A stretch of 37,287 bases of DNA, from the NCBI GenBank assembly GCA_049517415.1, contig JBEKSC010000027.1, forward strand, positions 1 through 37,287. The letters are read 5' to 3'. The stretch's first letter is position 1. The number at the start of each line of letters is the position of its first letter. Position numbers: made by a program. This document shows positions 21,001 through 24,000 of this stretch, in pieces. This stretch comes from Candidatus Bathyarchaeia archaeon (GTDB lineage: Archaea > Thermoproteota > Bathyarchaeia > 40CM-2-53-6).

Positions 21001-24000
21001 GTACTATCCCTTCATTCTGCAGTCCATTATTGGAGGCATGGATGACCAAGGCGGGCACATTTTCGCGCTCGACCCTCTTGGAAGTGTTACCGAAGAGAAA
21101 TACGTCTCAACTGGCTCCGGCTCACCAGTCGCTTACGGAGTTCTCGAACCTGGTTATAGAGAAGGCATGTCGGTTAAGGAAGCTATACCGCTGGTAGTTC
21201 GCGCAGTCAATGAAGCTATGAAGCGCGACTCGGCGAGCGGGGATAGCTTCGATGTTGCCGTAATCTCAAAGGATGGTTACAAGGAACTGAGCGAACAGGA
21301 GAAGAAAGGAATCCTCACTTAGGCCAGCTAATTCTGAATCTGGATAATTCCTGATTATTCGAGTTTCGGGTGGTTTCCTCAGTGGCGAGACTAGTGGACG
21401 ATTCGCAGGCAAGGATCCGTGAAACCATTGTCACCCACATGCCGAAGGAGGCTGAGATAACCCGAATCGAATTTGAAGGGCCTCGCCTCGCAATCTACGT
21501 CAGAAACGTCGGACTTTTGTTAGAACAGACCCACGTGGTCACCGACATCGTCAACTTACTGCATAAGCGCGTGGTCATACGGTCCGACCCGTCAATTCGG
21601 CTTGCTGAGAAAGAATCTGATCGTTTGATTAAGGGCATCATACCCGCAGAGGCAGAAATAACGGAGATAAACTTCGATCCAAGCTTGGGCGAGGTCGTTA
21701 TTGAAGCTAAGAAACCTGGCTTGGCGATAGGCAAGGATGGAGTTACCCTTCAAGAGATCATTAAGAAAACTAGCTGGCGACCCCGAGTCTTGCGGGCACC
21801 TCCACTCCCATCGAAGATAATCGCGAGTTCTAGGCATATTCTGCATTCTGAAAGCGAAGAAAGAAGCAGGATCTTCCGCGATGTTGGCGAACGCATTTTT
21901 CGCACAAGGCTCGCGAAGACTTCGAGTGTTTACCTAACACCGCTCGGCGGGTTCCATGAGGTTGGTAGGTCTGCGATGCTTGTGGAAACCGAGGAAAGCT
22001 GTGTGCTAATGGACTGCGGCATAAGCGCAGGGGCGGACCGGCCCATCTACGCATTCCCCCGAATCGACACCGATGAATTTGACATTGACAAATTAGATGC
22101 GGTAATAATCTCCCACGCACACCTAGACCATTGCGGGTTCGTCCCGTTCCTCTACAAATATGGGTATGACGGGCCGGTCTACTGCTCCGAACCAACAGCT
22201 GTGCTGATGACGCTCCTCCAACTTGATTACCTAGATATTTTCGGCAAGGAAGGTGGACATCCGCCTTATGATCAGAAGGATGTGCGCGAAGTCGTTATGC
22301 ACACCATACCCGTAAAGTACGGCGTGGTCACCGACGTAGCGCCCGATATCAAACTCACCCTCCACAATGCAGGCCACATAATTGGAAGCTCGATCGTTCA
22401 CCTCCACATCGGAGAAGGGCTTACAAACGTCATATTCACTGGCGATTTCAAATTCGGCAGAACGATGCTTCTGGAGCCTGCTGTCTGCTCGTTTCCACGC
22501 GCTGAGACCCTAATCATGGAAAGCACTTACGGCGGGCCGGACGACGTCATGTCCGATCGGGAAACGGTTGAGGGTAAGCTAGCTAGGATTGTCAACGAGA
22601 CGGCGGAGAAGGGCGGTAAGGTACTTATCCCGACTCTGGCTGTTGGGCGTGCTCAAGAAATCATGCTTGTTCTGAACGCTTACATGAAGAATAAGCAAAT
22701 CAAAGAACTCCCAATCTTCCTAGAAGGCATGATATCTGAAGCGACAGCCATCCACACCGCCTACCCCGAATACTTAGCACGCGACCTTAGGGAACAGATT
22801 CTCTACAAAGACATTAACCCTTTCCAGTCAGATTACTTCACGAATGTCGACCATCCCTCCGAGCGGGAGAAGATAGCGGCCGGGCCGCCGTGTATTATTC
22901 TCGCAACTTCTGGTATGATGGAAGGTGGTCCTGCGATCGACTACTTCCGTTACCTGGCTTCGGATGAGAAAAACTCATTGAGCTTCGTGAGCTACCAGGT
23001 TGAAGGGACACTGGGAAACAGGCTCAAAAATGGTGCCCGCGAGGTTTCCTTGATGGGCAGGAACGGAAAGGTTGAAGCTTTGAAGGTGAACTTGCGTGTT
23101 GAGAGCGTAGAAGGCTTCTCAGGACACTCTGATAGAAACCAGCTCTTCGCCTTCCTCAAACGAATCTCGCCGAAGCCGTCACGAGTCATACTTGGGCACG
23201 GTGAGCGGCGCAAGACCGACCTGTTCGCGCACCAAATCTCTAGGATTCTGAAGATGAGAACGACGGCGCCGGATAACCTCGAGAAACTCAGGTTAAGATA
23301 AGTTTAGTACATATCGTGGCAGCCTGATGGGCTGGCTATCCTGCTGGAGAATTAAATTCGGCTACGTTTCCTCGTTCGCGGTCGCGCCCGCCGTGGCAAC
23401 TTCGAGGCGAGAATTCTCCCTTCCCCGCCACACTTTCACGGTTGGTGGAGTTATGACGATCCTTTCTTCTCCTAACCTCGCAATATCACCCTGAATTGAC
23501 TTGACAAATTCGACGAGTTCGCCTATTGCCGATTTTGTCTCTTCGACACTTCGTTTCGCGATGGGGGTTATCTTGACGATTAGGATGTTGCCTTCTATAA
23601 TTTCAGCCTTGATTCTGGGTACGTCCATCGGATCTCGAAGCGGGTACGCTTTGACGTAGATTGGGTGTTGAATGGATGGATTCACCAATGGGAACCTCTC
23701 ATCTCTTTCATCGTCTGAACCGATCAATTAAGGGCAACTCGAGGTTGAGTGAGTTGTCTCGGTCGATGGCACTTTAAACATTTGCACTTAAGAGAGGGCA
23801 CTCTAACACGCCTATGTAAAGACCACACGCACTCACCTTAGAGAAGTGTGGGCAGTTTGTCACTCACCCGCCCAGAAGAATAGATTAGCGTGGAGAACCG
23901 AAGTGGCGCCACTTCCATTGGAACAAGCCTAACACTCAATTAACCTGCATTGCTAGCTGTGAATGATTTCCAGAGCTCATCCCCGACGTAGTGCACGTTC

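Follow-up and report, generated by a model that had tools for sequence, protein, structure and literature searches.

SepF is accompanied by a putative FtsZ tail micro-protein in a Bathyarchaeia archaeon that lacks the FtsZ GTPase

Here, we analysed the sepF gene of Candidatus Bathyarchaeia archaeon, carried on a 37,287-nucleotide stretch of DNA (the window), together with its potential partners in the rest of the genome and in related archaea. Gene position and homology indicate that this archaeon has not lost FtsZ outright; instead, ftsZ appears to have shrunk to an end piece of ~43 aa that is predicted to dock SepF. SepF co-occurs here with this tail-only ftsZ ORF rather than with a full-length FtsZ GTPase and, across the relatives compared, appears to track the C-terminal tail of FtsZ, a part of the protein that Pfam cannot see.

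Results

The sepF gene and its surroundings in the window are as follows.

23362..23727, minus strand: sepF, 121 aa (Pfam PF04472; start codon common to orthologs)
23428..23661, minus strand: SepF core, residues 23-100, predicted FtsZ-tail-binding domain (alignment A3, 51 SepF)
23662..23727, minus strand: N-terminal 22 residues of SepF, acidic and proline-rich, without an amphipathic membrane helix (sequence, hydrophobic moment)
23773..23778, minus strand: TTTAAA, putative TATA-box-like element, ~46 bases ahead of the sepF start (sequence)
21370..23301, plus strand: aCPSF1/FttA beta-CASP gene, convergent with sepF (Pfam KH_TffA, Beta-Casp)
23940..24434, minus strand: gene for a PUA-domain RNA-binding protein, upstream of sepF (Pfam PUA)

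The SepF ORF described in the earlier note is real: its product matches PF04472 over residues 29-99 at 40.5 bits (cut-off 27), which places the SepF core domain in the protein, and it is the single copy above the cut-off in the genome. The start codon, about which that note had been doubtful, is supported as TTG by the orthologs, in which this position reads ATG or TTG (20 genus sequences aligned); an alternative start at residue 14 was discarded, the orthologs having CTA, TTA or CTG there. The occurrence of SepF in 22 of the 23 genomes of the genus was reconfirmed. The nearest solved structures are the archaeal SepF-like proteins 3zie (E=3e-8) and 3zig; SepF of M. smithii (7AL1) gave no alignment at E<=1, so that its pocket residues cannot be mapped directly onto the protein studied here. 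In alignment A3, G, D, A, L, G, R, P and W are invariant, K65 and R84 near-invariant, and the GDIARLGEER segment of the core is nearly invariant. At the N-terminus, a search of the sequence for an amphipathic membrane-targeting helix found none: the best 11-residue hydrophobic moment is 0.30, compared with 0.64-0.84 in 4 of 6 SepF from genomes with canonical or near-canonical FtsZ, and SepF of genus g2 begins 5 residues ahead of the core. TTTAAAG(T) likewise precedes sepF in relatives of genera g2 and g4. The gene context is a housekeeping one, with aCPSF1/FttA adjoining sepF also in G037, G054, G246 and G423, and the PUA-domain gene in the first three of these.

The tubulin-type GTPase domain is absent from the genome: PF00091 has no match at E<=10, and tblastn with all FtsZ/tubulin-like proteins gathered returned nothing at E<=0.05. 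A weak FtsZ-model match on contig C46 (E=0.07) was rejected as FtsZ; it resembles a B12-binding domain. The claim that no frame holds any FtsZ or tubulin gene is thereby upheld for the GTPase domain and fails for an ftsZ-derived ORF. In relatives, ftsZ is found in the order moaD-ftsZ-PHP-metRS, and here the position of ftsZ, outside the window, is occupied by

C23:22435-22563, minus strand: tail-only ftsZ micro-ORF, 43 codons (synteny and homology to the FtsZ C-terminal tail).

The orthologous position and the homologous tail together identify this micro-ORF as the C-terminal tail of FtsZ. It is the best genome-wide six-frame match of three lineage-specific models, with E=3e-4 for a tail model derived solely from full-length FtsZ, 6e-10 for a second, which includes the micro-ORF sequence, and 1.6e-3 for the third. 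Its 43 aa have no Pfam match, and the tubulin/FtsZ GTPase domain, with its GGGTG(S/T)G motif and T7 loop, is absent. The micro-ORF retains the upstream DNA blocks of ftsZ and a Shine-Dalgarno-like start; GGTG(A) followed at 4-5 nt by TTG or GTG is seen in 7 tail-only genomes, with the same signal in the full-length genes of G037 and G051. The 25-base upstream motif does not recur elsewhere in the genome at <=5 mismatches, and no regulon was found. The tail has a net charge of -7 and ends in LNLNLGLDQIE, where the archaeal GID motif is kept only in part and reads GLD (G046 has GID, other families often xLY). A second conserved motif, L[YF][DNE][LM]EP, lies 10-12 residues further upstream; in the micro-ORF of this genome, the first motif no longer has its conserved Pro. 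Its stop codon overlaps the end of the convergent PHP gene. The shortening of FtsZ is not an assembly gap, since PHP, micro-ORF and moaD also lie together, with no ftsZ body, on independent contigs: contigs of 4 other runs cross the junction, one of them covering 994 bases with zero differences, and the flanks are adjacent within a 45-kb contig. The sepF (C27), micro-ftsZ (C23) and cdv (C29) loci are unlinked.

Across Bathyarchaeia, the moaD/PHP site carries a graded series of ftsZ forms, from the canonical 380 aa through full-length proteins without the T7 catalytic motif and forms of 240-310 aa without GTPase motifs to ORFs of 90-107 aa and 42-65 aa. Every step retains the last ~27 residues, and the form found in this genome is the shortest. 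Tables of FtsZ presence based on Pfam or HMM models of the GTPase domain therefore miscall its absence: of the order's 30 genomes with SepF but no Pfam tubulin, 25 hold a degenerate or tail-only FtsZ at the ftsZ site. The near-closed relatives G045, G046 and G047 (3-5 contigs) share the micro-ORF state, tail-only forms recur in four further Bathyarchaeia families, and, outside the order, 35 of the 69 class genomes sampled carry short tail ORFs, 33 of these 35 being SepF-positive. Elsewhere in the phylum, the single-contig, SepF-positive, Pfam-tubulin-negative genomes G423 and G482 encode a degenerate FtsZ of 318-325 aa. Within the genus, the tail-only genomes do not form a supported clade (2 changes; p-AU of a single clade, 0.07). 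The micro-ORF is frameshifted in G048, which may be a sequencing error, and the tail is out of frame in G013; at several f12 loci, the tail is kept where PHP no longer lies downstream. Tail-model matches in G076 (C18) and G078 (C66) were dismissed as chance, the real tail of G078 lying at the PHP site.

Among the 105 genomes of the order, 72 encode SepF and 64 have a Pfam tubulin. The tail is present in 64 of the 72 SepF-positive and 7 of the 33 SepF-negative genomes, counts in which kin are not independent and the negative calls for SepF rest on incomplete MAGs. SepF is absent from the lineages without the tail lineage (f2, f9, f10, G080 and G083). In family f8, the tail is intact in both SepF-positive genomes; where SepF was not found, it is interrupted by a stop in G082 and gone in G084, G080 and G083. 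The uncoupling of the two genes was not confirmed; the SepF-negative, tubulin-positive f10 genomes encode a different tubulin-like protein of 456-469 aa without the FtsZ tail. Part of the earlier reading of SepF without FtsZ survives. G054 combines an intact SepF with a clean deletion of the tail, moaD abutting PHP, and has no tail match genome-wide; in six SepF-positive genomes outside the order, 90-99% complete (G204, G228, G412, G447, G459 and G158), neither the tail nor canonical FtsZ was found. As regards the rule that archaeal SepF occurs only with FtsZ, this genome lacks the GTPase but keeps the tail, and the rule already had exceptions, with SepF lacking FtsZ in 6 of 150 archaea (Pende 2021, Supplementary Data 1).

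SepF is under strong purifying selection. The pN/pS of its core is 0.04-0.08 in close pairs whatever the FtsZ state (core pN 0.044 in tail-only and 0.038 in full-length-FtsZ genomes), and SepF is much more constrained than the tail. Tail-only forms, too, are under purifying selection in most pairs. In 9 tail-only genomes, the tail has pS 0.80 and pN 0.28, compared with 0.82 and 0.28 in full-length FtsZ, and differences by codon position of 0.34/0.18/0.61. After shared truncation, pN/pS of the tail is 0.05 for G042/G047 (P=6e-6) and 0.25 for G045/G046 (P=9e-4); further values are 0.28 for G106/G210, 0.46 for G246/G258 and, over the whole ORF, 0.20-0.36 for six f12 pairs (P<=1.4e-5). The tail of this genome (G000), compared with that of G045, is not distinguishable from neutral, with 6 non-synonymous and 2 synonymous changes and pN/pS of 0.88; in the same pair, the values are 0.12 for PHP and 0.04 for SepF. 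The G046a/b tails differ by 3 non-synonymous changes and 1 synonymous change.

The division genes listed in the earlier note are present: a single cluster on C29 encodes CdvA (PF18822), CdvC (AAA+MIT) and three CdvB-like ORFs, the Snf7 matches of which are below the cut-off, and an actin-family gene is located on C25. In addition, 21 of the 23 genus genomes encode a stand-alone PRC-barrel protein, reminiscent of the SepF-CdpB1-CdpB2 complex (10.1101/2023.03.28.534543; 10.1101/2023.03.28.534520), in which SepF of Haloferax and Archaeoglobus binds the PRC-barrel protein CdpB1 (10.1101/2023.03.28.534543). Here, by contrast, there is one PRC copy (C1:143461-143799), fused to a zinc ribbon, a candidate counterpart of CdpB1.

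Discussion

The best explanation of these observations is, probably, that SepF still holds its FtsZ ligand, of which only the tail is left. In the literature, SepF binds the C-terminal peptide of FtsZ (PMC8178401; PMC12583498), with a Kd of 84 uM reported for M. smithii. The genome comparison shows that ftsZ at the moaD/PHP site decayed stepwise across Bathyarchaeia, keeping the last ~27 residues, and that the truncated tail, which retains the start signals and upstream DNA of ftsZ and is found alongside SepF, has been maintained in frame by purifying selection in most lineages. We propose, as work on SepF of M. smithii and Odin would predict, that a SepF dimer binds the last ~12 tail residues in the alpha2/beta3 groove. 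The LNLNLGLDQIE end partly matches the archaeal GID type, the tail is acidic, and the groove region keeps Lys/Arg. Taken jointly, these three steps appear likely to us, the binding being inferred from co-occurrence, charge and the M. smithii and Odin analogy. Speaking against this reading are the neutral-looking changes in the tail of this genome, the partial GID motif, the defective copies in G048 and G013, the much stronger constraint on SepF than on the tail, and G054 and the six genomes outside the order in which SepF was found and the tail was not.

SepF of this archaeon is predicted to be unable to anchor a Z-ring because there is no FtsZ GTPase and no SepF membrane helix. The proposal that SepF works without FtsZ is borne out to this extent, and by the strong selection on SepF, but it fails in that SepF is not uncoupled from FtsZ: it tracks the FtsZ tail. 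With neither a polymer to tether nor a membrane helix, the pair could act as a soluble adaptor or timing factor, and the L[YF][DNE][LM]EP motif, which makes the tail longer than SepF binding needs, may bind another protein. The most likely client would be the Cdv/ESCRT-III ring, reached via the PRC-barrel protein. This last step is a guess that we offer tentatively. Equally tentative is the generalization that, in Bathyarchaeia, the FtsZ-SepF module was repeatedly and independently stripped to a tail micro-protein of 40-100 residues and an anchor-less SepF that now serve as a Cdv adaptor or timer.

Several other explanations have to be weighed. SepF might be kept mainly for another partner (the PRC-barrel protein, the CdvA N-terminal domain, CdvB or actin), with the tail as a fading, weaker ligand, a modified form of the earlier note's idea that is compatible with a tail functional until recently. 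We consider this rather unlikely, yet it is the most serious competitor, given the genomes that have SepF but no tail (G054 and up to six of the class), the near-neutral recent change in the tail of this genome, the indifference of SepF constraint to the FtsZ state, and the PRC-barrel protein with its CdpB1 precedent. It does not readily account for the absence of SepF where the tail lineage was lost or for the retention of the tail in most SepF-positive genomes, in five families independently. It is improbable that the micro-ORF is a pseudogene remnant with a third-position pattern inherited from full-length FtsZ. The neutral-looking G000/G045 comparison and the G048 frameshift would fit, and, the tail-only genomes of the genus being unsupported as a clade, the deep pairwise signal could predate separate truncations. 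However, in clades with a shared truncated N-terminus and start (G042/G047/G050; G000/G045/G046; f12; f11; f16), the frame is open at pS 0.3-0.8, with pN/pS of 0.05-0.5 and conserved start signals, which disfavours decay for the family as a whole.

Conservation of the stretch as DNA or RNA, such as a terminator or a 3′ overlap with the convergent PHP gene, is very improbable. The stop codon does overlap the PHP end, and the antisense frame sharing third positions also has a low ratio (0.18), but such a ratio is the expected shadow of sense-strand selection; moreover, third positions are saturated and second positions conserved, and the tail persists at f12 loci without PHP downstream. Least credible of all is a full ftsZ missing from this MAG: the assembly has 59 contigs and 6.9% contamination, but the contigs spanning the junction and the near-closed relatives tell against a gap.

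The retained SepF-tail contact, which we favour, resembles the SepF-FtsZ(CTD) pairs of M. smithii (7AL1/7AL2, PMC8178401), Haloferax volcanii (PMC8187382) and Odinarchaeota (PMC12583498) in the SepF core, in the acidic FtsZ peptide, whose end is in part GID-like, and in the co-occurrence of both. It differs in lacking the FtsZ GTPase and polymer and the N-terminal amphipathic helix of SepF, in the extra upstream tail motif, and in that the cell encodes CdvABC and actin. In f12-f18, an RHH gene directly precedes the full-length or shortened ftsZ of this locus, as in the cdrS-ftsZ2 operon (PMC8406309, PMC7439475), which suggests the FtsZ2 type, the one bound by SepF in H. volcanii and Odin; here, unlike in that operon, no RHH gene lies directly upstream of micro-ftsZ, and the best solved FtsZ match is M. 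jannaschii FtsZ homolog 1. Nitrososphaeria ("thaumarchaeal") FtsZ, which reportedly does not localise at division in Nitrosopumilus maritimus (PMC4164004), combines degenerate GTPase motifs and a retained, related acidic tail, alongside a short SepF of ~92-110 codons, but still measures 318-325 aa, whereas in this genome nothing of the globular part is left.

Judging from genome comparison, the old contact between SepF and FtsZ seems to outlive the FtsZ filament in cells with an ESCRT-type division machine, and the pair may be best read as a GTPase-less, anchor-less adaptor in a Cdv-encoding cell. This bears on the way in which archaea replaced FtsZ by ESCRT-based division, and on the reason for which an FtsZ that seemingly does not divide the cell persists in Nitrososphaeria and Bathyarchaeia: a graded natural deletion series that leaves only the SepF-docking tail would show where in FtsZ selection still acts. 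If the reading is correct, these genomes are living intermediates of the hand-over from FtsZ to ESCRT cytokinesis, and one conserved function of FtsZ depends on neither GTP nor filaments. The peptide of 43 aa and the protein of 121 aa offer a two-component test.

Truncated FtsZ paralogs of Hyphomicrobiales are likewise shortened forms kept by selection, perhaps as regulators, but they are reported to be GTPase-domain duplicates beside an intact FtsZ (PMC13732431), whereas the copy described here is the sole one and tail only. A homolog search with a 94-aa mini-protein of f12 returned 44 proteins, the named ones all "hypothetical protein", and ESM Atlas gave only matches under 0.9.

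Division genes of the genome

The features of the genome under study (G000) that bear on SepF function are the following.

Window 23362-23727, minus strand: sepF (Pfam SepF, 40.5 bits)
C23:22435-22563 (L064:5436-5564), minus strand, outside the window: 43-codon tail-only ftsZ
C29:12834-17302 (L267:3835-8303): one cluster of cdvB-cdvA-cdvB(wH)-cdvC, then genes for an Lrp-like regulator and one more CdvB, the third
C1:143461-143799 (L263:1372-1710), minus strand: stand-alone PRC-barrel and zinc-ribbon protein, 113 aa, in 21/23 genomes of the genus

The SepF gene described in the earlier note is real; it is flanked by the FttA/aCPSF1 gene and a PUA-domain gene, an arrangement common to relatives, and the closest solved structures to its product are 3zie and 3zig. 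The reported CdvA/CdvB(x3)/CdvC set likewise stands, with the three CdvB-like genes of the C29 cluster scoring under the Snf7 cut-off, as does the actin-family gene, located on C25. All three CdvB carry an FP(D/E)LP motif near the C-terminus, which we take to be MIM2-like.

A tail-only ftsZ at the moaD/PHP site

The claim that this genome has no FtsZ is correct for the GTPase domain: neither PF00091 nor tblastn with all gathered FtsZ/tubulin-like proteins (E<=0.05) found a match in G000. It fails for the gene as a whole. Where the genus still encodes a full-length FtsZ (5 of 23 genomes), ftsZ lies behind gcvPB/moaD and is directed towards a PHP-domain gene and metRS; on C23, both flanks of this site map adjacent, with a gap of 370 bases. 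A tail model was trained on the C-terminal 50 residues of 21 full-length FtsZ and on no other sequence; its single good match in the six frames of G000 is the ORF within this gap (E=3e-4; C23:22435-22629 between stops). This ORF closes with the tail pattern that FtsZ has in this order. Contigs of four other runs span the gap, one of them from within the PHP gene past moaD with zero differences, so that the assembly misses nothing at this site.

A 60-aa version of the micro-ORF, opened by an upstream ATG that G045 lacks, is present in a public protein collection. G000, G045, G046 and G048 share GGTGA, four bases, then GTG or TTG, yielding 42-43 aa, and GAAGGTG, five bases and TTG in G042, G047 and G050 is the start signal of full-length ftsZ in G037 and G051. 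Three upstream DNA blocks are common to 9 tail-only and 3 full-length ftsZ genes; these conserved non-coding blocks (L064:5565-5800 and orthologs, alignment A5), in a genus without a cdrS-like gene, are possible binding sites of another regulator. The simplest reading is that tail-only ftsZ arose by an internal deletion sparing promoter, start and tail. The paradox of SepF without FtsZ is mostly an annotation gap, filled by a repeatedly evolved tail-only FtsZ tracking anchor-less SepF. In G046, the gcvP-moaD-micro-ftsZ-PHP region occurs in two near-identical copies on different contigs (L109, L110), probably strain contamination.

Graded decay of FtsZ

Across the order, SepF is found in 72/105 genomes and Pfam tubulin in 64/105; comparison of both presence lists gives 30 SepF-positive, tubulin-negative genomes, 25 of which have a degenerate or tail-only ORF at the ftsZ site. 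Of the other five, G073, G074 and G076 did not yield the locus, G031 has an integrase-like ORF after PHP, and G054 is a deletion (see below). Within the genus (n=23), ftsZ is full-length in 5 genomes, degenerate in 5 (four, 276-302 aa long, have no GTPase motifs; the fifth, in G055, ends at a contig edge), tail-only in 12 (42-59 aa; frameshifted in G048, interrupted by a contig end in G043) and deleted in one, G054, where moaD lies directly against PHP. Families f6 and f7, previously listed as FtsZ-less, encode degenerate tail-bearing ORFs of 238-309 aa in G071, G072, G075, G077 and G079, that of G071 passing Pfam FtsZ_C, and G078 has a tail at a contig end. The T7 motif (NLDFAD in canonical class members) is missing from most full-length FtsZ of the order, with a near-T7 motif retained only in G068, G069, G070 and G084.

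Outside the order, short tail-bearing ORFs occur in 35 of 69 sampled class genomes, each at least 90% complete (24 in f12, 6 in f16, 4 in f11, 1 in f17), and 33 of the 35 encode SepF. Those of f12, about 90-107 aa, retain the first residues and the tail of FtsZ. Full-length FtsZ also occurs in some genomes of f12, f16 and f17; therefore, reduction happened several times. In G495, the ftsZ body contains several stops and only the last 55 codons are open (L239:2500-3135), possibly a truncation caught mid-course. Further tubulin-like genes occur in some of these genomes. The two inspected belong to G228 and G246 of f16, genomes with a shortened main ftsZ or none found; both lack a tail (L278, L279: 369-383 aa, basic/aromatic end). 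A ribbon-helix-helix gene directly 5' of ftsZ at this locus in f12-f18, resembling the cdrS-ftsZ2 operon (PMC8406309, PMC7439475), is missing in G000.

Co-occurrence of SepF and the tail

The earlier note regarded SepF and FtsZ as uncoupled; when the tail is counted instead, it is present in 64/72 SepF-positive vs 7/33 SepF-negative order genomes, all counts covering kin rather than independent events, and the 7 are 77-91% complete. In f8, both SepF-positive members retain the tail, which is broken by a stop in G082 and gone in G084, where SepF was not found (73% and 69% complete, respectively); G086 has a tail and no SepF match. Neither SepF nor tail was found in f10, whose tubulin match is a separate 456-469-aa protein, not the moaD/PHP-site ftsZ, present in 12/16 SepF-less genomes (L048-L055, L060, L062), with a winged-helix-like C-terminal end (Pfam MCM_C, E=0.16 only).

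Eight SepF-positive order genomes lack a tail call (G054, G031, G073, G074, G076, G013, G009, G022); in G013 the tail is out of frame, and G009 and G022 have an FtsZ body with the tail not confirmed. G054 (500 contigs, 89% complete) is a true deletion: SepF is intact, the ftsZ site is cleanly removed and no tail matches elsewhere. Tail searches of SepF-positive G204, G228, G412, G447, G459 and G158, with the PHP site inspected in G228, gave no match. Because of these genomes and G054, SepF can probably persist when the tail is gone, and this is compatible with a second partner of the kind that the earlier note suggested.

Selection on the tail

Across 27 tail codons, tail-only genes (n=9; pS 0.80, pN 0.28) resemble full-length ones (n=5; pS 0.82, pN 0.28), and tail-only differences at codon positions 1/2/3 are 0.34, 0.18 and 0.61. 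Ratios exceed 1 in shifted frames other than the antisense frame that has its third positions in common with the sense frame. The tail-only genomes of the genus are not necessarily one clade, and same-truncation pairs were therefore also compared (uncorrected pN/pS, one-sided binomial; pairs overlap). Ratios are 0.05 for G042/G047 (P=6e-6), 0.21 for G042/G050, 0.19 for G047/G050, 0.25 for G045/G046 (P=9e-4), 0.34 for G000/G046 (P=0.006), 0.20-0.36 for six f12 pairs, 0.28 for G106/G210 and 0.46 for G246/G258. Three comparisons depart from this: the G048 pieces (not significant), the two G046 copies (3 non-synonymous, 1 synonymous change), and G000 with the closest of its relatives, G045 (ratio 0.88 from 6 non-synonymous and 2 synonymous changes), a pair with ratios of 0.12 for PHP and 0.04 for SepF. 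The G000 tail copy may be relaxing, although numbers are small. For SepF, tail-only genomes give no sign of relaxation: pN is 0.044, as against 0.038 where FtsZ is full-length.

Possible mechanism

According to PMC8178401, PMC8187382 and PMC12583498, archaeal SepF holds the last FtsZ residues in a helix 2/strand 3 groove, with ion pairs to the acidic tail, and requires its N-terminal helix for membranes. The tail of the G000 micro-protein has a net charge of -7. The N-terminus of G000 SepF is proline-rich and acidic, and SepF of genus g2 begins five residues ahead of the core. In a scan of the 45 residues before the core, with G312, G435 and G475 left unassigned, most SepF from genomes with canonical or near-canonical FtsZ contain an amphipathic segment, with moments of 0.64-0.84 in G306, G329, G361 and G376 and weaker ones in G431 (0.48) and G146 (0.38), and no such segment was found in G000, G054, G106, G246, G388, G264 and G423. 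A simple helix-FtsZ rule does not fit, because G228 (0.90) and G495 (0.72) keep the helix, yet no full-length tail-bearing FtsZ was found there. In G312, G475 and G435 (L254-L256; f12 with mini-FtsZ), SepF has long acidic low-complexity N-terminal extensions, in open frames of 200-255 codons.

By predicted contact, an anchor-less SepF dimer would bind the end of the micro-protein, leaving a second, upstream motif free for another partner. Instead of tethering, the soluble pair would then serve as an adaptor or timer, most plausibly at the Cdv ring. PRC-barrel proteins bind SepF in Haloferax and Archaeoglobus (10.1101/2023.03.28.534543, 10.1101/2023.03.28.534520), and the stand-alone PRC-barrel protein on C1 is a candidate CdpB-like partner.

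Relation to published distributions

Pende 2021 states that SepF is missing wherever a genome has no FtsZ. The rule already has exceptions in their Supplementary Data 1, where 6/150 rows are SepF-positive and FtsZ-negative, four of them Thaumarchaeota. Two such single-contig genomes from outside the class in our sample (G423, G482) encode degenerate FtsZ of 318-325 aa missed by Pfam. None of the conclusions draws on the unpublished genome G470. Literature searches brought up no paper describing a tail-only archaeal FtsZ, the text consulted being passages of PMC11188069, PMC9723716, PMC7617429, PMC4164004, PMC9871819, 10.1101/2020.06.04.133736 and PMC10477458 and the abstract of PMC13732431; SepF without FtsZ in Bathyarchaeia may already stand in supplements (Pende figures, PMC11188069 table, bioRxiv).

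Other genes in the window

Similar four-helix membrane proteins of ~150 aa, apparently paralogs, are encoded 10 kb apart at 2874-3326 and 13149-13610 (both minus strand). The 704-aa protein at 7545-9659 (minus strand) contains a Cys4 motif and OB-fold-like segments that recur along it; by eye, it resembles replication protein A.
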